Positions 16,531-49,385 are shown, counted from the first letter of the stretch. The stretch is DNA of 49,385 nt from Eubacteriales bacterium (GCA_045546895.1 JAZQDS010000028.1:1-49385); one strand, 5' to 3'. The notes: generated by a model not told the origin, from the letters alone. Numbers and translations are program-made.

Positions 16531-16535
16531 TATAT

Positions 16536-19113: not shown

Positions 19114-19114
19114 A

Positions 19115-20456: not shown

Positions 20457-20484
20457 TTGATAGTTGTCCCCCTTCCTTTGTTTC

Positions 20485-27208: not shown

Positions 27209-28318
27209 TTAGTTAACCAAGGTTTGCTCGGTCTCGGCATCAAAGAGATGGCAATGATCAAGGTTCAATGCAGCCTTAATAACATCGTCAGCAACAGCGG
27301 TGGAGGTAGGAGCAACGCGGGCAGTAAACTTGTTCTCTTCTGCATCCAGATAGAGGTAAGTCTCGGAACCCATCATTTCAGCAACCTCAACTCTGCAAGT
27401 AATTACATAGCCGGGCATCTTAGCAAGGTTCTCTTCTTCATCATGAACATGCTCAGGGCGAATACCAAGAACAACCTTCTGACCAACCTTTTCCTTAACT
27501 GCATCGTTGATCTTGCTCTCGGGCAGCTTCAGGCTATTACCGGCAAATTCAACATAATAACCATCAGCCTTCTCAACCAGATCAACCTTAACAAAGTTCA
27601 TTTGAGGAGAACCGATAAAGCCGGCAACGAACATATTGCAGGGATAGAGATACAGATTCTGAGGAGTATCAACCTGCTGAATCAGACCATCCTTCATAAC
27701 AACGATACGAGTCGCCATGGTCATCGCTTCTGTCTGGTCATGGGTAACATAGATGAAGGTAGTCTTCAAATTATGATGGATCTTGGAAAGCTCGGTTCTC
27801 ATCTGAGCACGCAGCTTAGCATCCAAGTTGGAAAGAGGCTCATCAAGCAAGAATACCTTAGGCTCACGAACGATAGCACGACCCAAAGCAACACGCTGAC
27901 GCTGACCACCGGAAAGAGCCTTCGGCTTTCTATCGAGCAAATGGCTGATATCCAAAATCTTGGCAGCTTCTTCAACTCTTCTCTTAATTTCATCCTTCGG
28001 GGTCTTTCTCAGCTTCAGGCCAAAAGCCATGTTATCGAAGCAGGTCATATGAGGATACAGCGCATAGTTCTGGAAAACCATCGCGATATCTCTATCCTTA
28101 GGAGCAACATCGTTAACCAGCTTATCGCCGATGAACAGCTCACCTTCGGTAATCTCTTCCAGACCGGCAATCATTCTGAGGGTGGTGGACTTACCGCAAC
28201 CGGAAGGACCTACCAGAACCAAGAATTCCTTATCTTCAATTTCCAGATTGAAATCGGAAACCGCGATAACGCCGCCGGGATATCTCTTATAAATACCTTT
28301 TAAAGACAAACTTGCCAT
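27209..28318 (-). CDS. msmX: Multiple-sugar ABC transporter ATP-binding protein (MsmX/MalK type, orphan)
   Basis: GPSGCGKST, FQNYALYPHM, LSGGQRQRVALGRA, DEPLSNLDAKLR, C-terminal TOBE region; no adjacent permease or SBP. Confidence 0.93.
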   Translation of the reverse strand: MASLSLKGIYKRYPGGVIAVSDFNLEIEDKEFLVLVGPSGCGKSTTLRMIAGLEEITEGELFIGDKLVNDVAPKDRDIAMVFQNYALYPHMTCFDNMAFGLKLRKTPKDEIKRRVEEAAKILDISHLLDRKPKALSGGQRQRVALGRAIVREPKVFLLDEPLSNLDAKLRAQMRTELSKIHHNLKTTFIYVTHDQTEAMTMATRIVVMKDGLIQQVDTPQNLYLYPCNMFVAGFIGSPQMNFVKVDLVEKADGYYVEFAGNSLKLPESKINDAVKEKVGQKVVLGIRPEHVHDEEENLAKMPGYVITCRVEVAEMMGSETYLYLDAEENKFTARVAPTSTAVADDVIKAALNLDHCHLFDAETEQTLVN

Positions 28319-33909: not shown

Positions 33910-33933
33910 AATTACCACCTTAATTCTATCGTC

Positions 33934-34686
33934 TTATCGCTGCTTTGCAATTTCCTGCATAATTACAGAAGCCGCTACCGATGCATTCAAACATGAAATA
34001 CGTCCCTTCATGGGAATACGAACGAAAAAATCACATTTTTCGCGCAACAGCCGCGAAATACCGCTTTCCTCGCTGCCTACAATTAATGCAACACCGCCGG
34101 AATAATCTTGCTCATAATAAACGTTCTCACCCGCCATATCACAGCCGTATACCCAAATATTCTTCTGGCGCAGCTCCTCCACCGCTTGCGCAAGATTTGC
34201 AACTCTCGCAACAGGAATATGATGGATTGCACCGCCGCTCGCTTTTGCGACCGATGGTGTAAGGCCTACCGCGCGCCGTTTGGAGATAATAACGCCATGC
34301 GCTCCAAAAGCATCTGCTGAACGTAAAATCGCGCCAAGATTATGGGGATCCACAATTTCATCTGCAATGATAATAAACGGCGGCTCACCGCGTTCATCGG
34401 CGACCTTAAGAATATCCTCTACAGACGAATAACTTTTTTGAGCACAATATGCAATAACACCTTGGTGATTCCCTTTAGGTACCTTCTTATTGATCATTGC
34501 CATATCTGTATGAACAATCGGAACCCCTGCAGATTTGCAGAGCGCAACAATCTTCTTATAATTGGGATTCTTAGTATCCCCCGCAAGCAGTACTCTTTCA
34601 ACAGGACTATCGGATTGCAATAATTCAGTTACATTATTTTTACCAAAAACAATTTCCGAAAAATTTTGTTCTTCAAGAGCCATCAT
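33934..34686 (-). CDS. rlmB: 23S rRNA (Gm2251) 2'-O-methyltransferase
   Basis: NHQGVIA, DPHNLGAILRSA, VGSEESG, IPMKGRISCLNASVA. Confidence 0.95.
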   Translation of the reverse strand: MMALEEQNFSEIVFGKNNVTELLQSDSPVERVLLAGDTKNPNYKKIVALCKSAGVPIVHTDMAMINKKVPKGNHQGVIAYCAQKSYSSVEDILKVADERGEPPFIIIADEIVDPHNLGAILRSADAFGAHGVIISKRRAVGLTPSVAKASGGAIHHIPVARVANLAQAVEELRQKNIWVYGCDMAGENVYYEQDYSGGVALIVGSEESGISRLLREKCDFFVRIPMKGRISCLNASVAASVIMQEIAKQR

Positions 34687-34734
34687 TATCTCTCCTAATT
34701 CAATTAATAACTTTATTATATAACATATTAAGAA

Positions 34735-34772
34735 AAAATGCTATCAAAAATAACAATTTTCGATAGCATTTT
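34735..34772 (-). terminator. Hairpin/terminator after the pseudo-P2 ATPase gene; overlaps a possible rlmB promoter (TAGCAT-17-TATAAT, 34715-34743)
   Basis: AAAATGCTATC...GATAGCATTTT inverted repeat with a T run. Confidence 0.55.
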
Positions 34773-34776
34773 CTAA

Positions 34777-36990
34777 TTAATAAAAGAAATCCAATATAAA
34801 CGCTGCCAACGGAGCGAAGAGCGCAATCAAAATCGCAGCCAACCATTCAGCACCCATAAAAAACCAAGGAATTAAAACAATCAAAATTGAAACGGCAAAA
34901 AGAATCCAATGACGCTGCGCAACAATCCCCAGCCGAACAGAGCGAAGCAACATATATAATCCCAGCAATAATACAGAAATGGATGCAGAAAGAAGAGATG
35001 ATTGAACTCCGAAGATTGATGCAGCCAAGAAAACAAGTCCGCAAAACGCACCTTGCAAAAGACTGCGCCGATATTTTGTGCAATTATTTACGCTTTCAAT
35101 AAAGAAATAGCATGGAAATAATAGAATCGGCTTCATCAACAGCAGAGGAAAAACAATCTTTTGAATTTCAAATCCGCGAATCAAGCAAATAGGAAGAGAC
35201 GCCAATAGAATTAAGAAAAAAACAGAAAGGAAATTCATGCAACGGCGGATTCCGCAAAACATACATTTGCTCCAATAAACAACATCCTGCGGCGAGATCC
35301 TATCGGAATATACCAATCTTGCCTGTTCCTTTTCAATGGTGGAATGATGCTCAGATACCGCGAGCCGCTGCTCTTTATGATGGGGCAATGTGTAACATTG
35401 CTTTTGCGGCAATTCCTTTAAAAGTTCCAAATCATATTGCTCAGCAAGTTTCTCGCCAAGTTCCTTAGAATAGGAGTTAATCATCGCAACCTTGACCGAA
35501 GAATGTTTCAATTGGCCTATCATGTCATGCGTTTTAAAGGAAAGGGGTAAATCAAAAACCAAGAGCGAAATCGCCCTCATTTTATGATCTAAAAAACCAT
35601 CATTTAATTGATTAGGGATGTAATCAAAATTGCATATTGATAATATGACAACAAAGCGGTTTTTCTTTTCTTCTTCACGAATTCGCGCTAATAATTCATC
35701 ATCAACGCTTTTTAAAAGCGGCAGCATTTTTTGCCAATACGCAGCAGTTACAACAACCGAGCGTCCATCAGCAACAAAAAGCGAAGAGATATACGAATCA
35801 AAGCTCCCTTCGCGGCGAAATACCGGAAAATCTCTTGTGAGCTGATCAATATCGATCCCTTCTCTCTTCAAAGCAGGACCAATTTTATCGGTAATCATAT
35901 GATTGCCAAGGCATAATGTAAAATAACTTAAATTTCGCTTTGTTTCGCCCCAAAAATTAATGCAGTCAGAAAATTCCAAGGTTTCATGCACAATGCGACC
36001 GGCATCAAAATAGACCTCATTTTCGCGGTTCATATCATCAAACGCCTTAATGTTGCGGATAAGGGCACCTTTTTGATAGAAGCTTTCAACATTACGATAA
36101 AGCGTCCATTCTGTAAGCGAATCAATCGGATTTAGAGCAATCAAAGAAGAAACCACAGCAAAAAAGAGAAGCGTTTCAACATAAGCAGATGTAAAAATTA
36201 AAGAAAGCAGAGTTCCGATCGAAAGCAAAACAACAATAAAAAAGATTGCAATTTGCCCCAAATTCTTTTGCTTATTCACAAAGATCGACTGCTGCTTATT
36301 CTTTTTCTTCTTTCCAACCTTTGCAATATAACAATCTTCTGCAAGCGCAGTTACTATGCATTTTCCGCTTCCGCTTGTTAAATAACTGCCTTTGAACAGC
36401 ATATTGGATTGCTCCTCCGCAGGGACATTGGAGGAATCAAGCGGGCGATCATGCTTCTCGGCCGGAATGGTTCGATCGAAAACAAATGATTCATCGGCAA
36501 AAATATGACTTCCTTGCAAAATTCTCATATCTGCCGTCAAAACAGAGCCGGTCTCTACCATAACAATATCGCCGATCATCAACTCATCGGGCGATAAATA
36601 AAGCGTTTTTCCCCCGCGTAAAACCAAACTTTTGGATTGATTATCATCAATAATTTTTTTATATTTTCTCTGATAAATCAAAACGCCCAGCGCTTCGCCC
36701 CAATATAACAGAGTCGAGATAATAAACGCCGAAATGATAATCCAAAAAAGAGACCAATTTTGATTCAGCAGCGAAAAAACAATCACAAGAAAATATGCTG
36801 CGATGCTGATGATATTTACATAATAGAACTTGGAACGAAGCATGGCAAAAAGATCCTTTATGAGAGCCAGCAAACGATTAAAGCGAGATTGATTTGTAAT
36901 CACTTTATTTTCCGAAAGCCCGATCTCCAAATCGCTTCCGTATTCCTGCATCAAAGCATCTGTATCCATATAATATGGTTTCATCATCAT
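34777..36990 (-). CDS. Degenerate P2-type (Ca2+-ATPase-like) P-type ATPase homologue
   Basis: N-terminal GLS segment, A domain VLRGG...ELMIGDIV...ADMRI...DES, NMLFKGS...GSGKCIVTA; TGES replaced by FDRT, DKTGT by DAGRI, TGD by NSY, no PEGL. Confidence 0.75.
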   Translation of the reverse strand: MMMKPYYMDTDALMQEYGSDLEIGLSENKVITNQSRFNRLLALIKDLFAMLRSKFYYVNIISIAAYFLVIVFSLLNQNWSLFWIIISAFIISTLLYWGEALGVLIYQRKYKKIIDDNQSKSLVLRGGKTLYLSPDELMIGDIVMVETGSVLTADMRILQGSHIFADESFVFDRTIPAEKHDRPLDSSNVPAEEQSNMLFKGSYLTSGSGKCIVTALAEDCYIAKVGKKKKNKQQSIFVNKQKNLGQIAIFFIVVLLSIGTLLSLIFTSAYVETLLFFAVVSSLIALNPIDSLTEWTLYRNVESFYQKGALIRNIKAFDDMNRENEVYFDAGRIVHETLEFSDCINFWGETKRNLSYFTLCLGNHMITDKIGPALKREGIDIDQLTRDFPVFRREGSFDSYISSLFVADGRSVVVTAAYWQKMLPLLKSVDDELLARIREEEKKNRFVVILSICNFDYIPNQLNDGFLDHKMRAISLLVFDLPLSFKTHDMIGQLKHSSVKVAMINSYSKELGEKLAEQYDLELLKELPQKQCYTLPHHKEQRLAVSEHHSTIEKEQARLVYSDRISPQDVVYWSKCMFCGIRRCMNFLSVFFLILLASLPICLIRGFEIQKIVFPLLLMKPILLFPCYFFIESVNNCTKYRRSLLQGAFCGLVFLAASIFGVQSSLLSASISVLLLGLYMLLRSVRLGIVAQRHWILFAVSILIVLIPWFFMGAEWLAAILIALFAPLAAFILDFFY

Positions 36991-37015
36991 TCTCCCAAAA
37001 ATAAATTATAAAATT

Positions 37016-37044
37016 ATTATATACGAAAATGTCGAAAAAGTAAA
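37016..37044 (-). promoter_or_regulatory. Sigma-A promoter for the pseudo-P2 ATPase gene
   Basis: TTTACT-17 bp-TATAAT. Confidence 0.6.
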
Positions 37045-37070
37045 TAAAAATAAATTACACGGGCATAATA
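37042..37070 (+). promoter_or_regulatory. Candidate sigG/sigF promoter for the small ORF
   Basis: AAATA-17 bp-CATAATA, with -10 region GGGCATAATA. Confidence 0.55.
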
Positions 37071-37100
37071 AACATTGAAAAAAGAAAGGGTGATAAAAAG

Positions 37101-37265
37101 ATGAAGCAATCCAAAAATTTGATCATTTCAATGATGGCCGGTGCAGCTTTGGGCGCAACCGCCGGTGTTTTGATGTCAAAAAGTAAGCCTAAAAAAACCA
37201 TGACTAAAACAGCAGGAAGCGCAATTAAAGCGGTCGGAAATTTTGTGGAACACATGAATTTCTAA
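37101..37265 (+). CDS. Small 54-aa YtxH-like membrane protein (absent from ORF track)
   Basis: GAAAGGGTG RBS; MKQSKNLIISMMAGAALGATAGVLMSKSKPKKTMTKTAGSAIKAVGNFVEHMNF*; GxxxGxxxG helix plus basic tail; terminator follows. Confidence 0.78.
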   Translation: MKQSKNLIISMMAGAALGATAGVLMSKSKPKKTMTKTAGSAIKAVGNFVEHMNF

Positions 37266-37301
37266 AAAAAAACAACGCCAAAGGCAAAGCCTTTGGCGTT
37301 G
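37264..37301. terminator. Terminator of the sugar-uptake operon (probably bidirectional)
   Basis: A-run, then CAACGCCAAAGGC-AAA-GCCTTTGGCGTTG. Confidence 0.88.
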
Positions 37302-37317
37302 AATCTTTTTGAAAAAA

Positions 37318-38322
37318 TCAGCCAACGATACCGCTTCGGGTGATCGATTCGGTAAACTTTTTCTGAAGGATAATAAATGTAATCAACAAGGGCAGGATAT
37401 AAAGGATAATACCTGCGCGCAGAATCGGATAAAGAGTAATCTTATCTGCGCCGTAATATGCACCGCTATAGCCCGTCATATTAGAATACATTGAGCTCAA
37501 AACATTCGGCAAGGTATTAATGTTTGGCAGGAACATCGGAACAGTATAATAATCGTTCCAATACCAAACGATACAGAATAAGAATACCGTTGTAAATGCA
37601 GGGCCTGCATTGGGCACCAAAATGCGAAGGAAGGTCTTCATAGCGCCGCATCCATCGATATACGCAGCTTCTTCAAGTTCCTTCGGGAAGCCGCTGAAGA
37701 ACTGGCGATATACGAATACAAACAAGCCACTCTTCAAGCCTGCAGCAAAGAGTGCAGGAAGAATAAAAGCCCAAAGGGAGTCGGTCAGCTCAAAATAGGG
37801 CTGATCGATCCAACCAAGAGAATTGATCGCAGTTGCAAGATAGAGGGGATCAAACATTCTGAAGCTGGTATACAAGGGAACCATGATTGTTGACGGAGGA
37901 ACAATGATGGTCAGCAACACCAAGAAAAACAAAATATTCTTACCGCGGAATTTAAACCGCGCAAATCCATAACCGGCCAGCGCGCAGGAGCATACCTGCA
38001 AGATGGTAGGCCAGAAAGAAATATTAAAAGTGTTTTTCAAGCTGACTGCAAAATCCAGTTCCTCCCAAGCGTTCAAAAAGTTCTCCAAGGTGAAATGCTT
38101 CGGAACATAGATGATCGTTGTATCATACATATCCTGCGGAGTGCGAATTGCCTGCGAAAGGCTAAAGAGCAGAGGATATAAAATAATGTAAGAAAGACCG
38201 ATAAGAATCAGCGCAACAGCAAGATTCGCAATGAATTTAGAAACAACATAAATCCACATCCGCTTATCAGCTTTTTTACCTTCTTTTCCAAACTGATGTT
38301 TAAAAGCTTTAAAAAGTTTCAT
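37318..38322 (-). CDS. Carbohydrate ABC permease (MalG type), second pair
   Basis: LAGYGFARFKFRGK, EAA loop PKELEEAAYIDG, WYWNDY. Confidence 0.93.
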   Translation of the reverse strand: MKLFKAFKHQFGKEGKKADKRMWIYVVSKFIANLAVALILIGLSYIILYPLLFSLSQAIRTPQDMYDTTIIYVPKHFTLENFLNAWEELDFAVSLKNTFNISFWPTILQVCSCALAGYGFARFKFRGKNILFFLVLLTIIVPPSTIMVPLYTSFRMFDPLYLATAINSLGWIDQPYFELTDSLWAFILPALFAAGLKSGLFVFVYRQFFSGFPKELEEAAYIDGCGAMKTFLRILVPNAGPAFTTVFLFCIVWYWNDYYTVPMFLPNINTLPNVLSSMYSNMTGYSGAYYGADKITLYPILRAGIILYILPLLITFIILQKKFTESITRSGIVG

Positions 38323-38338
38323 TTTTTATCCTCCTTTC

Positions 38339-39718
38339 TTAATCACTACTCTTGGTGATAATTTTAAAGAGCGCAAAAACAACGCCAATTATCACTAATA
38401 TGAGCCCAAAGAATACCCAAGACGCCGCCGCTGCACCGCCGAAGTTAAAGGTAACATTGATCATCGAATCGATCTGCTTCAAAACAGCATTATCCGTATC
38501 GCTGAAAGTATCAACAATGGTATAAACAACGTTTACCAAAATAATCGGGGCTACATTCGGGAATGTAATCAGCCAGAAGGTTTCCCATGCAGTTGCGCCT
38601 TCAACATCACTCGCCTCATAAAGAGAGGGAGAAATGCTCTGCAAAGCTGCCAGGAAGAGCAGGATCTGAATACCGGAATCCCAAACAACATCGAAAATAC
38701 GGTCAGCAACTAACGTCATATATTCTGTTAGTTTCTCATTCAATCCTAACCCGACCAAGAAGTCGGTAGCATTTGCAGCCTCAAATAAAACGCCGTTACT
38801 AACATTACCTTCCATAATCGCAGCAGCATCGCTGGAGCTATTAAAGGTAGTCATAACAACACCGGTAGTAACAATAACGGGCAGGAAGAAAATTCCACGC
38901 ACCAGACCACGACCGGCAAACTTACGATTCAGCAAAACAGCAACAAACAAGCTGAAAATCAAAACAACCGGAACATTAACCAAAAGGTCTGTTAGAGTTG
39001 CGCTCAAAGCTTGAACGTATGCTGCACCACTGGTCAGCAAGCTCTTATAGTTATCAAAGTTGTTCCAAGTGCAGGCATATCCGTCAAACACAGATACGCT
39101 GGAGAAGGAAAACTGCAAGGACTGGAAGCAGGGATAAAGGAAGAACAAAAGGAAGCCGATAAACCAAGGCAAAACAAACATAAAGCCAACGAATGCCTGG
39201 CGAGATTCATAAGAAATCTTCTTACGATTCTTTTTCGCTTTCTTTTCAGAAGGAATCTTCTTCCCCGCTTTCTTTGCTTCTTCAATTTCAGCAAGGCGGC
39301 GCTCGCGCTCCTGCTTTGCTGCGCGGTTCTGGCGAACCGCCTCAAGCTGCTCAGGAGTTAACTGGGAAAGCTGCTCAACAATGCGCGCTTTTTGCTCATC
39401 GGAAAGCTGCTTTTTAGCAATTTCTTCCTGCATGCGACGCTCTTCCTCTTCCAACTCCGCGCGGCGTGCTGCCAATTCGGCAGCAGCCTTAGCAGCTTTC
39501 GCTTCGCGGATGGCAGCAATCTGCTCGGGAGTCATCTTAGCAAGGCGTTCTCTTGCGATTTCCTGCGCACGCTTGGGATTTTGCTTTGCAAGGGTTTTGG
39601 CGATATTTTTGTTAAATTCAGGATCGCGCTCGATAACCTCTTCCTTTGCAGCTTCAGCGGGCTCTTCAATCGGAGCATTCAACGTTTCATTATTCAATTC
39701 TTCGTTTAAATTACTCAT
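38339..39718 (-). CDS. Carbohydrate ABC permease (MalF type) with an N-terminal charged helical extension of about 170 aa
   Basis: FVLPWFIGF, FFLPVI, LQSISPSLYEASDVEGA; E/A/K/R-rich N-terminus. Confidence 0.92.
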   Translation of the reverse strand: MSNLNEELNNETLNAPIEEPAEAAKEEVIERDPEFNKNIAKTLAKQNPKRAQEIARERLAKMTPEQIAAIREAKAAKAAAELAARRAELEEEERRMQEEIAKKQLSDEQKARIVEQLSQLTPEQLEAVRQNRAAKQERERRLAEIEEAKKAGKKIPSEKKAKKNRKKISYESRQAFVGFMFVLPWFIGFLLFFLYPCFQSLQFSFSSVSVFDGYACTWNNFDNYKSLLTSGAAYVQALSATLTDLLVNVPVVLIFSLFVAVLLNRKFAGRGLVRGIFFLPVIVTTGVVMTTFNSSSDAAAIMEGNVSNGVLFEAANATDFLVGLGLNEKLTEYMTLVADRIFDVVWDSGIQILLFLAALQSISPSLYEASDVEGATAWETFWLITFPNVAPIILVNVVYTIVDTFSDTDNAVLKQIDSMINVTFNFGGAAAASWVFFGLILVIIGVVFALFKIITKSSD

Positions 39719-41946
39719 GAATTAGCACCTCCTACAACTACAAAGTCATTGGCGGGAACACTTACTCCGCCGATCATTGCATCGTCATCGCCATAGTTCA
39801 CATAGACCTTTGCGCCATTTTCAAAAATGGTAATTCTGGCAGTATCGTTAACGATTTTATGATCTTCGATTGTGCTGTCTTCAATTGCGTCGTAGACAAC
39901 CTTCAATCTCTTATAATTTTTGATCATGCTATCATAATGATCATCCAATTCACAAGCATAAGAAGCGGTGAAGTTGGTTTCCTGGAACGAGGTGGAATCA
40001 GCATCCATCAAGAGATAATAGAGGCTGGTGCCGGTTTCGGCAAGCTTCAGCAGAAGCGCATTCTCCTCGGAATCCAGATTAATTGCAGGGCCTGCCAAAT
40101 TGGTAAAGCCGCGGAATACCAGCTGATAGAACGGAACATCCTGCAGAGCCAGGTTATTATGGCTTGCATAAACCGGAGAATCAACCACATTATCAACATA
40201 AGGAACTGCATAACCATTACCGCCCTTTGTGCTGATAATGCCGTTCTCACCAACAAATTCATTCGCATTCTTATAAATCTCGCTCATAATCTTAGCAGAG
40301 TCATCGCGAGTAACAATATTGCTGAAATTATATGCACAATAAAGAGTTTCACCAATGGTATTAAAAGAATAGCTGGTTACGCCATATTTAGATGCATCAT
40401 CCATGAAGCTCTTGGAATAACCGGGCATAAACGCGGGATGAATCAGCTGATTGGAAATAGAATTTTTATCCAAGGCACCTGCAGCGGAAATTCTGGCTTT
40501 AAATACAGTTACAGGAGCAGCATCAAGACCATAGGCGGTGCTTCTGAACTTTTTAATCTTACCATTATTACCAAAGAAGGATTGCAGATCCAGATCAAAG
40601 CTCAAGAAATAATTATCGTTTTCATTTACTTTATCGATCAGCTTCTTCGCTGCCTTCTTTCCTCCGAGCTTAGAATTAAGATCAAAGGAATCGCTCATAG
40701 TTGTTTCAAGGCCGCCGGATGCCCAGCCGGTATAGTTAATATAAGCCTTATCAATACCATCGGCAACAAGCCGATCAACAAGTTCTTCCGCTTCGCTATA
40801 AGTAGTCAGAGGCTTAACTCCGGTATAAGGAATACCGAGGAAATGGGTCTGATACTTAACAGCACCATAAAGCGCAACACAAAGCGAATTGGAAATATTG
40901 CTGTCCACCTTATCCATTCCGAGTTCGTTGATCAAATATTCGCGGTATTGTTTAGCCATACCAACATAATTCGATTCATCTTTATCAAGGAAATAGATGC
41001 GGGAAACATAGTTTTCAGGAATTTCCTCACTATAATAGTTGCCGGTACCGGAGGAGCCGGTAACAGTGCGCCGAGTCTGGGTATCACGAACACTAACAAC
41101 GGAATATACCGCATTGTAACCATTCTTATACTTGCTTACATAGGCATGAACATTGCTGATTGCAGCACCGCTTTCAATAATGTTCAAGAAGGCTTCGCCA
41201 TTGCGAACCATGCCATAAACAGGCAAACGAAGAGGCTCGTTCAAATTGGTGAAATAACTCTGAGAAGCAACCTCGGTGGGGTTATTATCGTAGAAAGCAC
41301 CTTCGCCGCTCACACCAAATTCATAGGGAATCAAAACCTGTTCATTGAGTTCCATCAAGGAACCGCTGCCATCGGGAAGCAAACAATAGCCCTTATCCTT
41401 GGTATTGGCGGCACCAAAAAATTCAAACAGCTCAACAGTAAGAACACGGCTGTCGCCCATCTCAACAATTTTATCAATCAAAACTTCAACATGCAGATAA
41501 TCTTCCTTCAAGGAAAGCATAACAGGAATGGAGAAGTTTGTGAAATATTCGTTGAAATAGAAGGTCATGATCCAATCGTTATCGCGATGCTCAAAAACAA
41601 TGGAAGAATCCAAGGAGCTTACACCCTGAACGCTATAGCTTGAGTTCAGATATGTAACAGAAATTTGACTATTCAGTTCTTCGGCGGTATCGCCTTCTGC
41701 ATACTTATCTTCCGCTCTATCGATCGGATTGGAATACCAGATTGTACCGGTTTTCAAATTCATAAGAGCAAATTCGCCGCTGATATAATTCAGATACAAT
41801 GCAATATTCTTATTGGAATCTGCAAGCTGAAAATCAGGTGTTTCTGCAAGAGTCTTGGGCGCAGCCGCTGCTGCGGTAAGAGTAACCATCGAAACACAGG
41901 AAAGGATCATTACGATAGTAACGATAATAGAAATGATTTTTTTCAT
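39715..41946 (-). CDS. Secreted DUF5696-like protein
   Basis: Signal peptide; WYSNP, LPDGSGSL, LRLPVYG, YVGMAKQYREYL, PLTTY, GWASGG, VPFYQLVFRG, FENGAKVYVNY. Start ATG 41946. Confidence 0.8.
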   Translation of the reverse strand: MKKIISIIVTIVMILSCVSMVTLTAAAAAPKTLAETPDFQLADSNKNIALYLNYISGEFALMNLKTGTIWYSNPIDRAEDKYAEGDTAEELNSQISVTYLNSSYSVQGVSSLDSSIVFEHRDNDWIMTFYFNEYFTNFSIPVMLSLKEDYLHVEVLIDKIVEMGDSRVLTVELFEFFGAANTKDKGYCLLPDGSGSLMELNEQVLIPYEFGVSGEGAFYDNNPTEVASQSYFTNLNEPLRLPVYGMVRNGEAFLNIIESGAAISNVHAYVSKYKNGYNAVYSVVSVRDTQTRRTVTGSSGTGNYYSEEIPENYVSRIYFLDKDESNYVGMAKQYREYLINELGMDKVDSNISNSLCVALYGAVKYQTHFLGIPYTGVKPLTTYSEAEELVDRLVADGIDKAYINYTGWASGGLETTMSDSFDLNSKLGGKKAAKKLIDKVNENDNYFLSFDLDLQSFFGNNGKIKKFRSTAYGLDAAPVTVFKARISAAGALDKNSISNQLIHPAFMPGYSKSFMDDASKYGVTSYSFNTIGETLYCAYNFSNIVTRDDSAKIMSEIYKNANEFVGENGIISTKGGNGYAVPYVDNVVDSPVYASHNNLALQDVPFYQLVFRGFTNLAGPAINLDSEENALLLKLAETGTSLYYLLMDADSTSFQETNFTASYACELDDHYDSMIKNYKRLKVVYDAIEDSTIEDHKIVNDTARITIFENGAKVYVNYGDDDAMIGGVSVPANDFVVVGGANS

Positions 41947-41963
41947 ACGATTTACCCCCTTCC

Positions 41964-42647
41964 TCACGAGAACAATCGCATACGACATTCTGTAATGATT
42001 GTAAGAATGAACGTATACAACTGCTGCATCAAAACAACAAACAAAAAGATCAGGAAGAAGATGACAATCATCGCAACAATCGACATAATCAAATTGAACA
42101 AGGTCGAGGTAAAGGAATAATTATGAATAACCATTATTCCATAAAAAAGCAGACCAACAAACCACATATCAGCGCAAACTGCGAGGATTGAAACGAAAAC
42201 AAACTCATTTTCAATCAAAACGCGCGAGAATACTGCAGAGATAATGTTTGCAAGAATCAACGGAGTCAGGCTGTAGCAGGCAACAACATAAATATCTACT
42301 AAGCGACCTTCGCCGTTCAGCAAGGTGCAGAGCGCCCAGTTTGCAACAACAAAAAGCAAAACAAGAACGCCGGAAGTGCACAATACAACCAAAACATTGA
42401 AGTCTTTTAAACGCAATGTGGAATAAATGAAGCCGGTAGCGACTTCTTTAATGATTGCGGAAACAGAAAAAGCAATCAAAAGCAAAGTTGCGTAAACGGT
42501 GGAGCCGTTTTTCTTAATCTTCAAATCTTCCATGGTCTCAACCGGATGGGTCAGCAGCAAAAACGGATTCTTTTTGCCAACCAGCAGCTGCCGAAACAGC
42601 GCCTTCAGCATAACATAAATGTTACTCAGCCATTTCTGAATTGTCAT
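41964..42647 (-). CDS. Yip1-like membrane protein
   Basis: HP motif, ANWALCTLLNGEG, YSLTP, GIMVIHNYS; about five TMs; start ATG 42647 with GGAGGTGG RBS. Confidence 0.78.
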   Translation of the reverse strand: MTIQKWLSNIYVMLKALFRQLLVGKKNPFLLLTHPVETMEDLKIKKNGSTVYATLLLIAFSVSAIIKEVATGFIYSTLRLKDFNVLVVLCTSGVLVLLFVVANWALCTLLNGEGRLVDIYVVACYSLTPLILANIISAVFSRVLIENEFVFVSILAVCADMWFVGLLFYGIMVIHNYSFTSTLFNLIMSIVAMIVIFFLIFLFVVLMQQLYTFILTIITECRMRLFS

Positions 42648-44181
42648 CGTCTCCACCTCCTTTTACCTTATTCTTAATAGCGGCAATGATTTTTTTGCCC
42701 CAAATATGCCATACAAAGAAGATCACAACCAATACAACAAGGCCGGTCATCAGCAATCCGAAGTTATCTGCAAGCAGGTTTTCTCTATAAAGAGCGAAGG
42801 AATCCTGATAATTCATTCTGTCGTTTGCGATCTTGAAATGATGAAGAGCCTCTTCATAGCGACCGTTCTGATAATAAACCTTACCAAGACCGATATGAGC
42901 CAACTCACAGTTGGCATTGCTCTTTAAAACTTCAACCCAATAGCCTTCGGCCTGATCATAGAGGCCGCGGTCATAATACTCAATACCCTGATGCAGCAGC
43001 TTACCATAGTCGGTAAGATCATATACGGTCAAAGAACCGTAAACCGCATCAAGAATTAAGGTCTTCTTCCCCAGCTTTGCAATTCCAACAGGAGATTGGA
43101 AAAGACCTTGCTGAGAACCCTTTGCACCATATACAAAGGTCAGGTTACCTTCACTATCATACTCAAACACCTTGCAAAGGTTAGAATCGAGCAAAGTAAA
43201 GAAACCATCATCATCTACCGCAACATCGGTAAATACATTACCTTGACCGGCGGTAGCGCGGCGAACCAAATCGCCATAGGTTCTGGAAAGCGTTGTGTTA
43301 ATCTTTTGAGTACTCTTTGCCGTAGGATCAAGAATACTGTTGCCCATAAAGTTCATTTTCGTAAGCTGATCGGTATTGGTGCCTTCAGCGGCGGAAACAA
43401 CAGTATAAACAAAACCGTATTCATCAACGATCAAATTAGCAAATTCAGTCGGAACAAAGGTAATAAAGGTATTGTCTGCATTTTTGCCCATCAATGAGCG
43501 GAAAACACGACGCCAAGCCAATGTTACCATATCAACAACCGACATCTTAACGGCAGGAGCACCAAAATAACGAAGGAACACGCCCTGAGGATTAAATTCC
43601 ATTACACCATCGAGGGTACCTGTGGAAATTACATAAATAGACATATTCTTCGCAATACCAACCTTAGAAGGCTTGAAATCGCCTGTAAACATATCCGTCT
43701 TCGGCGCGCCAATGGTCTGAACAATCTTACCGCTCTTGGATTTATCCAGCTTCAATACCTGCTTATTACCGGTATCGCATACATAGATATAACCGAATTT
43801 ATCAACGGTAAGACTTTCCGGCGCCTTCATCTTATAAGGATTGCCGTTTGCTTCCAAGGTAGAAAGCGTTTTGATATGATTGAATTTGCTATCCAGAATG
43901 TGGATCAATGCTGCGCCCTTGGAATCATAGCAGAGAATGTAGATCTCATTCTGCGGACTTACATAAAGATCAATCGCCTTTTCGATAACGCCGATTCCAA
44001 GATCGTCCCCGTAATATACCTTTTCGGGGGCATAGCCGGAGGGAGTAATAATTGCTTCGCCATAATAATTATAATTGTAGGAATTAAAAGCGATATAGGC
44101 CGAAGAAGACATTGCAAGCATCGATACCAAAATCATCATCGCCATTGCAAATGCAATGATTTTTGTTAATTTACGTTTCAT
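42622..44181 (-). CDS. Extracellular NHL beta-propeller plus TPR protein with C-terminal TM anchor
   Basis: Signal peptide; NHL-like blades (PESLTVDKFGYIYVCDTGN, FQSPVGIA); TPRs (LAHIGLGKVYYQNGRYEEALHHF); C-terminal TM. Start ATG 44181 with AAGGAGG RBS. Confidence 0.82.
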   Translation of the reverse strand: MKRKLTKIIAFAMAMMILVSMLAMSSSAYIAFNSYNYNYYGEAIITPSGYAPEKVYYGDDLGIGVIEKAIDLYVSPQNEIYILCYDSKGAALIHILDSKFNHIKTLSTLEANGNPYKMKAPESLTVDKFGYIYVCDTGNKQVLKLDKSKSGKIVQTIGAPKTDMFTGDFKPSKVGIAKNMSIYVISTGTLDGVMEFNPQGVFLRYFGAPAVKMSVVDMVTLAWRRVFRSLMGKNADNTFITFVPTEFANLIVDEYGFVYTVVSAAEGTNTDQLTKMNFMGNSILDPTAKSTQKINTTLSRTYGDLVRRATAGQGNVFTDVAVDDDGFFTLLDSNLCKVFEYDSEGNLTFVYGAKGSQQGLFQSPVGIAKLGKKTLILDAVYGSLTVYDLTDYGKLLHQGIEYYDRGLYDQAEGYWVEVLKSNANCELAHIGLGKVYYQNGRYEEALHHFKIANDRMNYQDSFALYRENLLADNFGLLMTGLVVLVVIFFVWHIWGKKIIAAIKNKVKGGGDDDNSEMAE

Positions 44182-44194
44182 TACTTGCACCTCC

Positions 44195-45052
44195 TTAACC
44201 CTTAATACCGGCATGCGCCATTGTCTTAACCGTGCTGCTCTGCGCAAAGATAAAGAAGATAATCGGCGGGATCATCATCAAAACAGATGCCGCAGCGGCT
44301 TCGCCGGCTCTCGCAACGCTTCCCGCTGCAGTAATCTGGCTCAGAGCAGTCGGCAAGGTTTTAAGTGTTTCAGTATAAATATAGGAAGCAGCAGTTGCAT
44401 TCCAGTTTCTTTGGAACGAGAAGATTGCCAGCGTCAGCCACGCAGGCTTAACGGAGGGCATAACAACCGACCAAAGAATTTTCCAATCTCCTGCGCCGTC
44501 AATTCGGGCAGCTTCGATCATTGCATCAGGAATCTCAGCAATATTTTGCTTCAGCAAGAATACACCCATAGTCGCTGCAATTTCGGGCAGCCAGAATGCA
44601 AAATAAGTATCAACAATACCAAACTTCGCCATTACCAAGTAAACAGGAATTTCAGTAACACCACCGGTAAAGAGCAGCGACCACACAACAAGATTGAAGA
44701 TCAGCTTCTTGCCGGGGAACTTATTCTTTGCAAGCGGATATGCACACATTGCAGCAGAAATAATATGAATAACAGTACCGATAATTGTATTCATCAAAGT
44801 ATTGAATACATAACGGGAAAAAGGAACCCACGAAGTAGATGTAAGGTCAAACAATCTACGGAAGTTCATCATTGTGGGGTTGCGGGTAAAGAATCTGGGC
44901 GGGAAAATAAACAACTCATTATAAGGCTTTACAGACTGAACAATCGCGTAAACCAAAGGCAACGCCATGAAAGCAGCATAGAGAGCAAGTAAAAGATAAG
45001 TTGTAATATCGCCGACAACAGAAGCTTTTGTTCTTCTAAGTTTTGTAGACAT
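44195..45052 (-). CDS. Carbohydrate ABC permease (MalG type), first pair
   Basis: CAYPLAKNKFPGK, IPDAMIEAARIDGA. Confidence 0.93.
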   Translation of the reverse strand: MSTKLRRTKASVVGDITTYLLLALYAAFMALPLVYAIVQSVKPYNELFIFPPRFFTRNPTMMNFRRLFDLTSTSWVPFSRYVFNTLMNTIIGTVIHIISAAMCAYPLAKNKFPGKKLIFNLVVWSLLFTGGVTEIPVYLVMAKFGIVDTYFAFWLPEIAATMGVFLLKQNIAEIPDAMIEAARIDGAGDWKILWSVVMPSVKPAWLTLAIFSFQRNWNATAASYIYTETLKTLPTALSQITAAGSVARAGEAAAASVLMMIPPIIFFIFAQSSTVKTMAHAGIKG

Positions 45053-45072
45053 TCTTTATTACTCTCCTTTCC

Positions 45073-46035
45073 TTAATCATGAGAAAAACGTGCAAGTACT
45101 TTATTAATAACAGCTTTAGTAACAACCATCATAATAAAGAGGAAAACAGCAATCGCCGAAGCGTAGCCCAATTCAAAGCGGGTATGACCAAAGTCCGAAA
45201 TGTGCAATGTCAGGGTATGGCCGGCATAGTCAACCGAGGGGTTACCCAGCAAAGCGGAAGAAATACCACCTACTGCGAAGGAGGATGCAATCTGCATAAC
45301 CGCACCAAACATCAACATACCGCTCATCTGAGGAAGAGTGATATAGTAAAGTTCCTGGAAACGATTGCGAACACCATCAATCGCGCCGGCTTCAGCAAGG
45401 GATTCATCCAGATTCTGCAAGCCTGCAACGAACGAAAGGAAGCTGGTTCCCAGCGAACACCAAATCTGAACGATAATAACAATGGTCAACATATAATCCG
45501 TATTGGTAAGCCAAGCGATCGGATCATCGATAATGCCAAGGTTCATCAATACCGAGTTGATCAAACCATACATATCCGAGCTAAACATATATTGGAAAAT
45601 GAAATATACGTTTGCGAGAGTCGGAGCATAGAATACAACGGTAAAGAACGCGCGCGCAATCGGCGGCAGATCATTAATAAACCATGCAAAAACAAAGCAA
45701 AGTAAGTAGCTTACCGGACCGGTAATGATCGCAAATTGGAGAGTATTCTTCAAAGCGATCATAAATACATCGTCTTCAAGGAACATCCGCAGATAATTGT
45801 CCCATCCGACAAATACCGGAGTATTCAAAATATCATAGCGGGTAAACGAAAGGAAGACCGAAGCGCCAATGGGGATAATTGTAAATAATGTAAAGAATGC
45901 CATGAAGGGCAAAATTAAAACATAGTTGATTTTATTATCGCAGATCTGGCGCCAAGTAAGAGCAAGCTTTTCGGAAAAGGTAAGCTTTTTCTTTTTCAAG
46001 AGCTCCAGCTCTTTTGCTTTTCTATTATCAGCCAT
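45073..46035 (-). CDS. Carbohydrate ABC permease (MalF type), first pair
   Basis: FVGWDNY, FYAP, GLQNLDESLAEAGAIDG, GYASAIA. Confidence 0.93.
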   Translation of the reverse strand: MADNRKAKELELLKKKKLTFSEKLALTWRQICDNKINYVLILPFMAFFTLFTIIPIGASVFLSFTRYDILNTPVFVGWDNYLRMFLEDDVFMIALKNTLQFAIITGPVSYLLCFVFAWFINDLPPIARAFFTVVFYAPTLANVYFIFQYMFSSDMYGLINSVLMNLGIIDDPIAWLTNTDYMLTIVIIVQIWCSLGTSFLSFVAGLQNLDESLAEAGAIDGVRNRFQELYYITLPQMSGMLMFGAVMQIASSFAVGGISSALLGNPSVDYAGHTLTLHISDFGHTRFELGYASAIAVFLFIMMVVTKAVINKVLARFSHD

Positions 46036-49000
46036 TATTTCTTCGCCTCCTCCGGAACAGAAAGATGATACTCGGAACGCTTACGCCAAATTTCATCATT
46101 AATCTGTTCATTATAATAGAACAATTTTTCGCGCGGGTTAGAATGATTATTAGTAACATTACGGAACGCATTGGTGATATTACGCTGAACATAATAACCA
46201 CCTACCAGCTCAGGAGTCTCGCGGATCCACTGCCGCTGCTCTTTGATTGCAGCCGCCTCCGCTGCAGACCACTTAATCTTTTCAAAAGCCTCGTAGTTTG
46301 CGGTGGTATATCTTGCAACGGAACCGATCGCCATTTCAACACGGTTACCGTAATCTGCCATGATTTCGGCAGAAGTCCACCACTTCATAAAGGTCCACGC
46401 ATCCTCCAGCTGCTGCTCGGGATTCTTCGCCTGCTCGATGGTGCTGGAAACGATCATACAAGCAGTAAGACCAACAGACTCTTCGGTTCTGTTTACAATA
46501 CCGGTTTCTTCATCTAGAGTGCCGGGAACGGGGGAAACATTCCAAAGTCCGTTCAATTCAGGAGCAGATTCCTGCAGATAAGTAATATTAGAATAGGTAG
46601 TAAGTACGAGCGGCATCTCACCATTTCTGAAACGTGTATACCAGCTATAATCTACCGGCAAATCATATTGCAGATAGTAGCGGGTCCATTTTTCAAAGGC
46701 ATCAACTGCAAACTGCTTTGTGAAGTTTGTAATGGTGCCGTCTGCAGCATAGGGAGTATTTCCGCTTTGGAGAATGAAAGTATAGAACAAGCTGGAATCA
46801 ATACCAACCGTCATATTGTTTGCCTGAATAAAGGGCAAGATATTATCAAAATCATCCCAAGTATTCGGAGCAGAAATGCCCAATTCGGCAAAAATATCGG
46901 TTCTATAGAACATCATATTGAAGTTTTGGGTTTCAGGCAGAGCATAAACCTCTTGAATATCGTTGCCTTCATCATCCTTTGTGCTCAAGGTATAAGGAAC
47001 CATCGCATATTCAGTAAACCGCTTAACAACCTCATCGTAATCTTCAAACTGGCTGATGTCATATACCGCATCACGAACGCCAAGGTTCATCGGCTCGGAA
47101 CGGGATACATGCAAAGCAATATCGGGGCCACGGCCTGCAACAATCGCTTTGGAAAGAATTGCCAGAGGAACCAACGAAACGTTTACGGAAATATCAGTTT
47201 GCGGAGTGAAATAGTTATCGCAAAGGGTTTTCAAAACCATCGCCTGGTCACGGCCGGTACCAACCCAAACAACGAGATTACGTCCGCTCTCGCTGGTAGC
47301 ACCAACAGAGGTATAGTCATCAACAAAGGAGGACCAAAATGCGCGAACCTCATGGGCGATGGATTCGCCAAAGTTCGCAGTCTGGCGGGTAGCCTTCATA
47401 CCTTCGCCTGTAAAGATGATCTTATCAATCTGAAGGGGCTGCTTTCTTAAATCCAGCATCCAAGAGCTGAGGGTACTAATATTATCTTTAAAGGTAGAAA
47501 GACGATCGGGAATAGAATAAGGTGCATCAATGAAGTCCTGCAATTGCTTTTTCAAGGTTGTAATGCAGCTGGCAGAACCAAGAGTCCCATTCAGCTCAAG
47601 GATCTGATTTTCGATAGAAACAAGGTCCTCCAGAACGGAACCAAACATCTCTTCAAGACCTTCAACACGTCTATCCAGCTCGTAGTCGCGATATGTATCG
47701 GGCTGGGTACCGGTAACGATGATGATCTTACGATAGATATAGTTCAGCTGATAAACAATATCTTCCGCCTCACGGCTTACACCGGCCATCGGGCCGATGA
47801 TAGCTTCAAGCGAAAATTCATGCTTACCCTTGGTAAGATAAAATTTATAATCATAAGACTTGCCTTCAGCATCAACGCCGCCAAGCTTCTTATATCTATA
47901 GCCAACCTCAAAGGGGAAACCAACAGTAGCAGCCTCGGCAAAAGGAACCTTTCCATCGATCAGAATTTTTCTGAACGACGTAGAATCCGCAACATAAGAC
48001 TGACGATATCGAACGCCAACGGTATAATAACCATCAGCAGGAACATCGATCGTCCAGTTTACGGTCTGGCCGTTTTTATTCCAGTTTTCACCGCCCAGAA
48101 CGTTCATTCTGGTCTTGCTGATGCTATAGGGCGAAACCTTCGGATCGCTTCTGTCGTAAGCAGGTTGAATCAATGAATCACTCTTATCGACATAATTCTC
48201 TGTTTCGAGAGTAAACTCCTGCTCAACATTTTGCGCACCGTTTGCATCATTAAGGGCAATGTAATCGGCATAAGACATCGCTGCTCCGCTATTATGGAGG
48301 CGGATGTGGTCCAGAGCCATAATACCGGTAGTAAAGCCGATTTCAAGCTCATGGGTTCCCTTGGTCAGATAAAACTTCACAGGATCATCAAATACACCGT
48401 CAGGATCACGCAAGCTCTTGCTCAACCATTTTGAAACCTCAACCTGCTTAGCGAAAAGCTCATTGCCGACTTCATCAAACACGCGCTTACCACCCTCATC
48501 ACCCCAGTTTCTCTTCAAAATGAAACGAAGTGCATCATCGTGGGGAAGCTTGCCGTCAACTTTAACAGAGATTTCATAGTCCTTGCCGTTGCCATCGCCA
48601 AGCAGCGGAAAATATTCCAGCTCCAAAGCATAAAGGCCGGTCTGAGGAACCTCAACCTTGTAGATAAGGCTGCCGGTATCGGTCATAACAAGCACCTGAT
48701 CGCGCCGCTCATAAGAATCAACGCTCTTATAAGGAGCAGTACCGCCGGCCACTGCGTTGCCTTCAACGATAATCTCGGGAAGAACAACATCGTGCTCTTG
48801 ATACTTCGAATAATAATCGACATAGCGACCATCGCGATAGAAACCGATCAGCGAAATCTCGCTTTGGGCATCAGAGCCTTCAACAGCAACACTTTCAGCA
48901 GGAGCATCATTCGATTCTGCCTCTTCCTCTTCAGCGCCCGCAGCATCATCGGTTGCTTCAACAGTGCTGTCTACAGCAACATCGCCATCCTCAACCATCA

Positions 49001-49109
49001 TATCTGCTTCATCCGCAAAAGCGAAAACAGACATAGAGAGCGACATTACGAGCACCAGCAAAGCAGCTGTGAACGAACGCAGAAAAGCATACATTCTCGT
49101 GTCTTTCAT
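46035..49109 (-). CDS. Giant (1024 aa) extracellular solute-binding protein with two CBM-like N-terminal modules
   Basis: Sec signal ending AFA, acidic linker, two related beta-rich modules, helical segment, C-terminal family-1 SBP domain (GRGPDIA, YALPETQNFNMMFYRTDIF, PNTWDD, AWTFMKWW). Confidence 0.88.
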   Translation of the reverse strand: MKDTRMYAFLRSFTAALLVLVMSLSMSVFAFADEADMMVEDGDVAVDSTVEATDDAAGAEEEEAESNDAPAESVAVEGSDAQSEISLIGFYRDGRYVDYYSKYQEHDVVLPEIIVEGNAVAGGTAPYKSVDSYERRDQVLVMTDTGSLIYKVEVPQTGLYALELEYFPLLGDGNGKDYEISVKVDGKLPHDDALRFILKRNWGDEGGKRVFDEVGNELFAKQVEVSKWLSKSLRDPDGVFDDPVKFYLTKGTHELEIGFTTGIMALDHIRLHNSGAAMSYADYIALNDANGAQNVEQEFTLETENYVDKSDSLIQPAYDRSDPKVSPYSISKTRMNVLGGENWNKNGQTVNWTIDVPADGYYTVGVRYRQSYVADSTSFRKILIDGKVPFAEAATVGFPFEVGYRYKKLGGVDAEGKSYDYKFYLTKGKHEFSLEAIIGPMAGVSREAEDIVYQLNYIYRKIIIVTGTQPDTYRDYELDRRVEGLEEMFGSVLEDLVSIENQILELNGTLGSASCITTLKKQLQDFIDAPYSIPDRLSTFKDNISTLSSWMLDLRKQPLQIDKIIFTGEGMKATRQTANFGESIAHEVRAFWSSFVDDYTSVGATSESGRNLVVWVGTGRDQAMVLKTLCDNYFTPQTDISVNVSLVPLAILSKAIVAGRGPDIALHVSRSEPMNLGVRDAVYDISQFEDYDEVVKRFTEYAMVPYTLSTKDDEGNDIQEVYALPETQNFNMMFYRTDIFAELGISAPNTWDDFDNILPFIQANNMTVGIDSSLFYTFILQSGNTPYAADGTITNFTKQFAVDAFEKWTRYYLQYDLPVDYSWYTRFRNGEMPLVLTTYSNITYLQESAPELNGLWNVSPVPGTLDEETGIVNRTEESVGLTACMIVSSTIEQAKNPEQQLEDAWTFMKWWTSAEIMADYGNRVEMAIGSVARYTTANYEAFEKIKWSAAEAAAIKEQRQWIRETPELVGGYYVQRNITNAFRNVTNNHSNPREKLFYYNEQINDEIWRKRSEYHLSVPEEAKK

Positions 49110-49182
49110 AAACTACCTCCAAGTAAGTTTGATCAGCATTTCAAGGAACTCGCATTCCTTTTGCAAATCTGCCAAAAGGCTT

Positions 49183-49199
49183 TTGAACAAATTACACAA
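49183..49199. promoter_or_regulatory. Putative operator, copy 3 (in the leader of the sugar operon)
   Basis: TTGAACAAATTACACAA within TTTTG...CAAAA. Confidence 0.45.
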
Positions 49200-49236
49200 A
49201 AGAAATTTACGCGTTTTTATCCATACTATCGCTGAA

Positions 49237-49265
49237 ATTATAGCATATTATATATAAAATTTCAA
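49237..49265 (-). promoter_or_regulatory. Sigma-A promoter of the eight-gene sugar-uptake operon
   Basis: TTGAAA-17 bp-TATAAT with extended TG. Confidence 0.75.
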
Positions 49266-49333
49266 TAATAAATTAAAAAATTTTGAATTTTGTTTTGAAA
49301 TTTAGCTTATTTCAGTTTTGTTTACATAATTAT

Positions 49334-49350
49334 TTGTGCATAATAACCAA
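49334..49350. promoter_or_regulatory. Putative operator, copy 4 (upstream of the sugar operon, inverted)
   Basis: TTGTGCATAATAACCAA; reverse complement TTGGTTATTATGCACAA. Confidence 0.55.
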
Positions 49351-49385
49351 AAATGCCGCTTCTAAAAATTTAGGTGCGGCATTTT
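49349..49385 (-). terminator. Terminator of an upstream gene outside the window
   Basis: AAAATGCCGC...GCGGCATTTT inverted repeat. Confidence 0.7.

Follow-up and report, generated by a model that had tools for sequence, protein, structure and literature searches.

How Gram-positive bacteria take up large glycans is less understood than the Sus systems of Bacteroidota. An operon from an Eubacteriales bacterium (GCA_045546895.1 JAZQDS010000028.1:1-49385) raises this question in a concrete form: what do a giant solute-binding protein (SBP), two pairs of MalF-like and MalG-like permeases and three accessory proteins (a propeller protein with NHL and TPR repeats, a Yip1-family membrane protein and a DUF5696 protein) accomplish together? 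The DNA analysed, here called the window, is a complete contig of 49,385 bp from a source genome of 1.9 Mb that is 96% complete. On balance, the operon is probably a member of a widespread glycan-uptake cassette of Bacillota, in which ATP-binding cassette (ABC) import of the CUT1 type is combined with a conserved accessory module. Import is the likely function, judged from homology and gene context; beyond it, we infer a physical complex, a route by which substrate is handed over and a role for the DUF5696 protein.

Organization of the operon

Eight head-to-tail open reading frames (ORFs), called in the window, run on the minus strand from 49109 to 37318. Listed 5' to 3' on that strand, with the signals on either side, they are:

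49237..49265, minus strand: promoter-like site, TTGAAA, 17-nt spacer and TATAAT with an upstream TG (11 of 12 matches)
46035..49109, minus strand: giant SBP, 1024 aa (Pfam SBP_bac_8)
45073..46035, minus strand: MalF/UgpA-like permease F1, 320 aa (BPD_transp_1 and NCBIfam UgpA/MalF models)
44195..45052, minus strand: MalG/UgpE-like permease G1, 285 aa (BPD_transp_1 and NCBIfam UgpE/MalG models)
42622..44181 (ORF open to 44247), minus strand: NHL propeller and TPR protein (Pfam NHL and TPR)
41964..42656, minus strand: Yip1-family polytopic membrane protein, about 227-230 aa (Pfam Yip1, E 1.1e-13)
39715..41946 (ORF open to 41988), minus strand: DUF5696 protein, 743 aa (PF18952, E 9.5e-146)
38339..39718, minus strand: MalF-like permease F2, 459 aa (BPD_transp_1; UgpA model on residues 173-411)
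37318..38322, minus strand: MalG-like permease G2, 334 aa (BPD_transp_1, E 6.8e-15, and NCBIfam UgpE/MalG models)
37273..37301, minus strand: intrinsic-terminator-like hairpin, 13-bp stem with 8 GC pairs, then a T-run

The original prediction, made from the DNA sequence before this analysis, had described one tightly coupled minus-strand operon encoding an SBP, four permeases and NHL/TPR, Yip1 and DUF5696 proteins. Both parts of that description are borne out, the domains by Pfam and NCBIfam, the coupling by junctions that either overlap or leave gaps of at most 20 nt and by the promoter-like and terminator-like elements at the ends. In order, the junctions are a 1-nt overlap, gaps of 20 and 13 nt, an overlap of about 26 nt, a gap of 17 nt, an ATGA overlap and a gap of 16 nt. 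The promoter-like site, a consensus match only, is the best of its region and lies 128 nt 5' of the SBP start; only 276 nt are known 5' of the giant SBP gene, as the contig ends at 49385. The terminator-like hairpin begins 17 nt past the G2 stop. A GGAGG-like Shine-Dalgarno sequence precedes all six starts displayed, the overlapping NHL/Yip1 junction not being among the six, and its positions favour starts at 44181 for the NHL/TPR gene and at 41946 for the DUF5696 gene.

A conserved core in other Bacillota

These genes recur together in other genomes. Of 401 genomes sampled across the phylum, 32 carry PF18952, and they represent 19 of 278 genera. The 20-kb neighbourhoods of 48 DUF5696 places in 31 other Bacillota genomes were scored with hidden Markov models over six-frame open frames; a search with the single protein had given 6 loci, of which two (L006, L007), matching at 21-22% identity and without other cassette genes, were left out of all counts. 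The NHL/TPR gene lies directly upstream of DUF5696 in 46 of the 48 places, the misses being one contig start and one divergent place (L086), and a Yip1 domain is present in 47, being weak in L086. F2 comes after DUF5696 in 47 places, and G2 directly after F2 in 46, with the single F2 miss and both G2 misses at contig ends. A reverse test gave the same picture: near-full-length NHL/TPR matches occur in 31 genomes, every one of them among the 32 DUF5696 genomes, and 17 other genomes with NHL/TPR matches show partial matches to NHL repeats only. Co-conservation of the accessory genes with the second permease pair is strict, and the core, comprising NHL/TPR-Yip1, DUF5696, a MalF-like and a MalG-like permease in four or five genes, is almost invariant.

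The giant SBP with F1 and G1 forms a looser part of the cassette. Of the 48 places, 31 have this module and 17 do not; it lies upstream in 25, matching the window, and downstream in the other 6. The gene order was expected to recur in other Firmicutes, and the 25 places with the window-like upstream arrangement, under many family labels, agree with that expectation. The notion of an eight-gene unit holds in part: the core of four or five genes stands, and one indivisible unit does not, given that the giant SBP module is optional.

These counts also bear on the main alternative, which denies that there is a machine at all. Two independent CUT1 importers, a GH129-like enzyme or lectin and an anchored propeller would merely be co-expressed and would act in sequence without contact. 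The separate occurrence of the modules (17 places without the giant SBP, F1 and G1, 6 with them downstream) suits such an arrangement, as do the standard MalF/MalG appearance of both permease pairs, the resemblance of long secreted DUF5696 forms (1337-2159 aa) to free multi-modular enzymes, and a weak complex prediction considered below. It accounts less readily for the constant order of NHL/TPR-Yip1, DUF5696, F2 and G2 and their nearly 1:1 co-occurrence across many family labels, a linkage tighter than is usual for co-regulated enzymes and repeated up to 21 times, in matches, within one genome; nor does it explain why the flanking carbohydrate-active enzymes (CAZymes) vary freely when the core does not. 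Action in sequence without contact is regarded as unlikely, if still a serious contender. In five genomes searched whole, the DUF5696 matches number 11, 21, 11, 11 and 4, some of them fragments.

One surveyed place (L077, G341:C3) carries the full cassette beside Omp85 and LpxD genes, from which it appears that the module also occurs in a Bacillota lineage apparently possessing an outer membrane.

Neighbouring CAZymes and regulators

The flank scan took 150 of 214 clusters of unassigned neighbour ORFs through Pfam (all multi-member clusters and the longest singletons), and its counts are lower bounds. CAZymes, which the original prediction had proposed to look for near the cassettes, adjoin them in at least 41 of the 48 surveyed places, under at least 24 family labels. 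They include GH43, GH3, GH26, GH5, GH31, GH10, PL1, GH42, GH29 and GH140, and also GH130, GH27, GH2, GH38, GH106, GH67, GH28, GH51, GH113 and GH16. Ordinary SBPs of 430-600 aa are present in at least 38 of the 48 places, and LacI or AraC regulators in at least 20.

Such surroundings are hard to reconcile with a role in the cell's own envelope, where a common glycan of wall or capsule would be bound or remodelled by DUF5696 and the propeller, and its fragments recycled through F2/G2. The neighbouring CAZymes act on plant or host glycans and are accompanied by sugar SBPs and sugar-type regulators in the numbers just given, 11 to 21 matches per genome are difficult to explain by one envelope ligand, and no wall-synthesis genes recur beside the cassettes. 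Two features would suit it: a near-invariant DUF5696 catalytic face beside unrelated CAZymes, as expected for one common ligand, and the position of the window's own locus, whose surroundings are genes for housekeeping and sporulation and include neither a CAZyme nor a regulator alongside. An envelope function is judged very improbable.

The eight genes are also found together in four close relatives, flanked by genes for nicotinate phosphoribosyltransferase and a P-type ATPase. Elsewhere in the source genome there are relatives of GH2, GH29, GH35, GH95-like, GH106, GH28 and GHL6 proteins, which hint at fucosylated or galactosylated glycans of host or plant origin as substrate.

The DUF5696 protein

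The operon had been thought to contain no recognisable glycosidase. None is named by Pfam, but the DUF5696 protein resembles glycoside hydrolase family 129 (GH129) by sequence profile, structural model, Foldseek and VIA-align. Its AlphaFold2 (AF2) model (mean predicted local distance difference test, pLDDT, 88.4; predicted template modelling score, pTM, 0.90) consists of a beta-sandwich (residues 40-320), a barrel (327-690) and a second beta-sandwich (693-738). A profile search of the PDB returned 5opq and 8rzg at E 7e-11, and Foldseek returned DagB (E 1.5e-33), NagBb (1e-29), GH101 (about 1e-19 to 1e-21) and GH31/GH36 (1e-13 to 1e-16). With VIA-align, two GH129 structures reached Z 30.1 (571 residues, root-mean-square deviation 4.0) and Z 29.6 (583 residues, 3.9), the next structure group following at Z 18-20; overall, the three domains align with GH129 along their whole length at Z 29-30 over 571-585 residues. 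DUF5696 is a remote homologue of GH129-type glycosidases and a three-domain protein of the GH129/GH101 type.

The likeness is to the three-domain architecture of GH129 members NagBb (5wzn) and DagB, or ZgGH129 (5opq, 8rzk), and more distantly to GH101, GH31 and GH36. Passages of the DagB report describe a barrel between two beta-sandwiches, one N-terminal and one C-terminal, and state that the enzyme needs an Asp from its N-terminal domain (PMC5698469); the Asp of the invariant PDGSG motif of DUF5696 (D192) may be compared with it. Unlike GH129, DUF5696 always lies within a transporter cassette, its identity to that family is 13-17% with the catalytic half not aligned by sequence, and the window clade is without two Asp residues of the DUF5696 family. 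A profile of the barrel half alone yielded, against the PDB, chance matches to kinesin only (E about 0.06).

Conserved polar residues of the family include D192, W408, R547, N577, N623 and E637. Among 151 representatives at 50% identity (the 150 best matches and the window protein), Asp is found at position 538 in 134, at 601 in 137 and at both in 126. In the model, positions 538 and 601 would lie in strand-to-helix loops of the barrel, the usual catalytic face. Most members of the family probably cut glycan, whereas the window clade, which retains F-D-x-D/E at 451-453, may bind glycan without cutting it. In nearly all members, one hydrophobic segment at the N-terminus indicates an extracytoplasmic protein anchored there; in the window clade, the segment contains an L-S-C motif that we take to resemble a lipobox.

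The family is large, with 7103 representatives at 50% identity (E up to 1e-3), 4059 of them with E up to 1e-30, and the public names of six of its clusters read only 'hypothetical protein' or 'DUF5696 domain-containing protein'. Compared with the close relatives, DUF5696 is the least conserved of the eight proteins, at 59% identity against 83-91% for three of the permeases. A tree of 52 DUF5696 proteins, computed by a quick method with long branches flagged, places the window clade on a long branch, and in it the long-form DUF5696 proteins of multi-copy genomes form a derived clade, mostly without the giant SBP.

DUF5696 also occurs as the N-terminal part of secreted proteins of 1337-2159 aa (14 proteins, P0173-P0186). 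Their C-terminal parts, of 400-1200 aa, matched no Pfam family in the ten that were scanned, and profiles for NHL, Yip1, the permeases and the giant SBP matched none of the 14. A long open frame runs antisense to the DUF5696 gene at 39859-41643 on the plus strand, a 594-aa ORF within 640 stop-free codons; among four relatives, the corresponding frame stays open over 499, 215, 345 and 480 codons. Most likely the frame arises as a side effect of codon usage.

The NHL/TPR-Yip1 unit

The family profile of the NHL/TPR protein matches designed Pizza propellers over six or seven stretches (E 3e-48, by sequence profile) and the extracellular sensor of PknD (E 1e-30), its closest natural solved relative by sequence; the NHL part is a predicted six-bladed propeller. 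TPR occupies positions 381-433 of the profile. Hydropathy peaks at 30 and 497 of the ORF correspond to a signal or anchor at the N-terminus and a transmembrane helix at the C-terminus. The Yip1 protein scores 51.8 bits against a Pfam cut-off of 28.6 (PF04893) and has several hydropathy peaks, and its profile found no match in the PDB. In 36 of the 48 surveyed places, Yip1 forms the C-terminal part of one open frame with NHL/TPR; in 10, the two are separate genes, as they are in the window. Fusion in the relatives indicates that the propeller/TPR and Yip1 parts act as one unit. Hydropathy suggests a signal or anchor, a propeller and TPR on the outside, one transmembrane helix and a Yip1 membrane domain.

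A precedent for such a membrane protein is YknWXYZ of Bacillus, in which a Yip1-family protein is likewise encoded with an ABC transporter; in passages of the report on that system, YknW modulates how the YknXYZ complex assembles (PMC4887032). The likeness considered here is that of the Yip1 domain. YknWXYZ is a MacB-type exporter with a membrane-fusion protein, unlike the type I importer of the operon, and YknW has neither propeller nor TPR.

Both PknD and YknW invite another view of this unit, as a sensor of extracellular glycan by which the transporter is gated or regulated, instead of a scaffold that captures the glycan: the propeller's closest natural solved relative is the sensor domain of a kinase, and YknW acts on the assembly of its transporter. 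By Pfam, however, neither the NHL/TPR-Yip1 protein nor its fused forms have a domain for signalling output (kinase, HTH or GGDEF), hydropathy shows only membrane segments past the TPR of the latter, and the regulators in the loci are ordinary LacI and AraC types. A sensory role is very improbable, and a scaffold for capture is preferred.

In the divergent place L086 (G350:C60, about 8100-17300), genes of the HlyD and MacB types separate DUF5696 from F2/G2. The insertion adjoins a Yip1-containing protein, an arrangement that recalls YknWXYZ.

The giant SBP and the first permease pair

The Pfam match of the giant SBP to SBP_bac_8 (E 1e-15) is restricted to residues 652-922, and the AF2 model (pLDDT 84.4) places further parts before it. 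The chain opens with an N-terminal helix (signal or anchor) and a disordered linker (31-90), continues through two beta-sandwich modules (110-273 and 299-437) and a bundle of four helices (439-555), and ends in the SBP domain (559-1024). By Foldseek, the C-terminal part resembles oligosaccharide SBPs (E 1e-16 to 1e-14), among them sophoro-, malto-, manno- and cello-oligosaccharide binding proteins. SBP_bac_8 is matched by all 31 giant-SBP homologues. A weak Pfam match to CBM_35 covers residues 335-388, and weak matches to Golvesin_C, CBM_35 and CBM_6 appear in 10, 7 and 1 of the 31 homologues; this fits carbohydrate-binding modules for the beta-sandwiches and does not prove them. Foldseek with the whole protein returned SBP matches only, giving no names for the beta-sandwich modules or the helical bundle, and residues 40-620 matched only 'hypothetical protein' clusters in the ESM Atlas.

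F1 has six hydropathy peaks and is 84% identical in close relatives, and G1 is 91% identical. F1 and F2 share 24% identity and G1 and G2 about 24%, which marks the two permease pairs as old and distinct.

The second permease pair and the ATPase

F2 and G2 carry EAA-type motifs in their family consensus, the window F2 reading ...YEAS..EGA. F2 is 417-474 aa long in the window clade against 287-331 aa outside it. The difference lies in a charged N-terminal extension of about 160 aa that is peculiar to the clade, is covered by no Pfam match and is presumably cytoplasmic.

The operon was also said to have no ATPase. This is true only inside the operon, since a MalK/MsmK-type gene lies in the same window, on the same strand and 9 kb downstream:

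27209..28318, minus strand: stand-alone MalK/MsmK-type ABC ATPase, 369 aa (ABC_tran, OB_MalK and TOBE_2)

The genome has no other OB_MalK match. In Bacillota, 'multitask' ATPases encoded on their own and shared by several importers are known (PMC7658222), and in one surveyed place (L079) an MsmK-type ATPase gene stands directly upstream of the cassette. The product of the gene at 27209-28318 probably energises the operon permeases in trans, a coupling that we infer. By tblastn, the genome holds one further sugar-type permease pair, on contig C96. Immediately downstream of the MsmK-type ATPase gene is one for a PucR-type regulator (25878-26963).

Proposed mechanism

Docking of the Yip1 protein on the second permease pair was approached by complex prediction, using Yip1, F2 (residues 160-459) and G2 and supplying the family alignment of each. 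Three runs gave scores of 0.44, 0.44 and 0.42, against 0.00 for the best of 3 controls, and shared at least 85% of their contacts, with partner pLDDT of at least 69. In calibration, 116 of 157 solved complexes and 2 of 215 mismatches attained the mark of this score; only 18 of the 157, and both passing mismatches, did so at 0.60 or below. The model lends weak support to an interface between Yip1 and F2/G2, slightly raises the odds of docking and agrees with the YknW precedent.

On this basis, a sequence of steps may be proposed. The beta-sandwich modules of the giant SBP, together with the propeller, would retain a large oligo- or polysaccharide on the cell surface. That glycan would be trimmed or presented by DUF5696, which in the window clade may only bind it. 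The SBP domain would then hand oligosaccharides to F1/G1 and perhaps to F2/G2 too, the Yip1 domain would dock the propeller unit on F2/G2, and the stand-alone MsmK-type ATPase would drive both permease pairs.

Several observations weigh against this scheme and against the assignment of the operon to glycan uptake. The first concern the locus itself. Neither the window nor the close relatives have a CAZyme, a regulator or an ordinary SBP beside the operon, no regulator was found in 33934-49385 or upstream in the relatives L002-L005, and F2/G2 are without an SBP of their own at the window locus. Others concern DUF5696. The window protein has A538 and L601 in place of the family Asp residues, and Asp occurs at neither position in any of the 24 window-clade sequences of the alignment, which makes a hydrolytic step doubtful here. 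HMMER alignments of DUF5696 to 5opq and 8rzk end near residue 456, and to 5wzn slightly later; they stop before the catalytic half, and the catalytic pairs D435/E478 of NagBb and D486/E517 of DagB are not mapped by sequence. The catalytic-face residues D192, W408, R547, N577 and N623 are nearly invariant despite very different CAZyme neighbours, which is odd for a substrate-specific enzyme. As to docking, the calibration implies that passes at such a score are wrong in the majority of cases unless the proposed pairing was already likely. Finally, a second ATPase on contig C100, 44% identical to the MsmK-type enzyme and carrying TOBE_2, could energise the permeases in its place.

A bolder picture, rather doubtful at present, would make the core a Gram-positive counterpart of the Bacteroidota utilisome: a modular surface complex docked on an ABC permease, deployed in some 10-20 copies per genome for different glycans, with a GH129-derived feeding element that would be catalytic in most lineages and a non-catalytic holder in the window clade.

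Expression and flanking genes of the window

Short RNA contigs (180-677 nt, mostly at least 95% alike) from three metatranscriptome libraries of one animal-gut study cover pieces of the SBP, F1, G1, Yip1, DUF5696, F2 and G2 genes, and two of them bridge the G1/F1 and G2/F2 junctions. The NHL/TPR gene is nearly without cover, which proves nothing either way. Such contigs show neither strand nor level, and the libraries may contain DNA; they give no more than a hint that the operon genes are expressed.

Downstream of the terminator-like hairpin lies a P-type ATPase-like gene (34777-36990) whose Pfam match is to the E1-E2_ATPase domain only. Its product is 41% identical to that of the syntenic gene in the relatives, compared with 77-91% for neighbouring genes, and the gene is either fast-evolving or degenerating. 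A 673-aa ORF at 31897-33918 is without a Pfam match at E 1e-5; flanked by the genes for SpoU and EF-G, it keeps its position in L002 and L003. The window further contains SpoIVA (3456-4949) and a row of SpoIIIA-type genes (16999-20486), from which the organism is probably a spore former.

Relation to known systems and significance

The transport components are those of MalEFGK2-type CUT1 importers, with a cluster-B oligosaccharide SBP fold, MalF-like/MalG-like pairs and EAA-type loops. A MalK-type ATPase encoded apart from the permeases is a feature shared with importers served by MsmK or MsmX (PMC7658222). Unlike CUT1 importers, the operon has two permease pairs to one SBP, the SBP is 1024 aa long with about 550 extra N-terminal residues, and NHL/TPR, Yip1 and DUF5696 are strictly tied to the second pair.

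Gram-positive polysaccharide utilisation loci (gpPULs) are defined by an enzyme, a transporter and a regulator, and the passages that give this definition name no conserved accessory core of the cassette's kind (PMC5320581). Related cassettes stand with CAZymes, sugar transporters and LacI/AraC regulators, and many of these places answer to the definition. The window locus, which has a transporter, no regulator, no named CAZyme and a doubtful enzyme, falls outside it.

The original prediction had proposed a functional analogue of SusCD systems. The genomic logic of that comparison holds, for as in SusC/SusD utilisomes a repeated transport core stands beside varying CAZymes and surface glycan-binding modules; homology does not. 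Pfam found no TonB-dependent transporter or SusD-like domain in ten proteins at 33934-49109, and in contrast to SusC/SusD there is no outer membrane, import being ATP-driven through an ABC transporter and not TonB-dependent.

A literature account already defining the cassette had been named as a possible refutation. Searches of open full texts directed at the DUF5696 family and the cassette brought up no description of either, subscription journals and supplements lying outside that search. The cassette is widespread in Bacillota and so far undescribed in the literature searched, and DUF5696 is a large uncharacterised family of GH129-like proteins. If the parts form a complex, they would represent a new architecture for ABC import, and the core would then mark glycan-utilisation loci of Bacillota as SusC/D pairs do in Bacteroidota.

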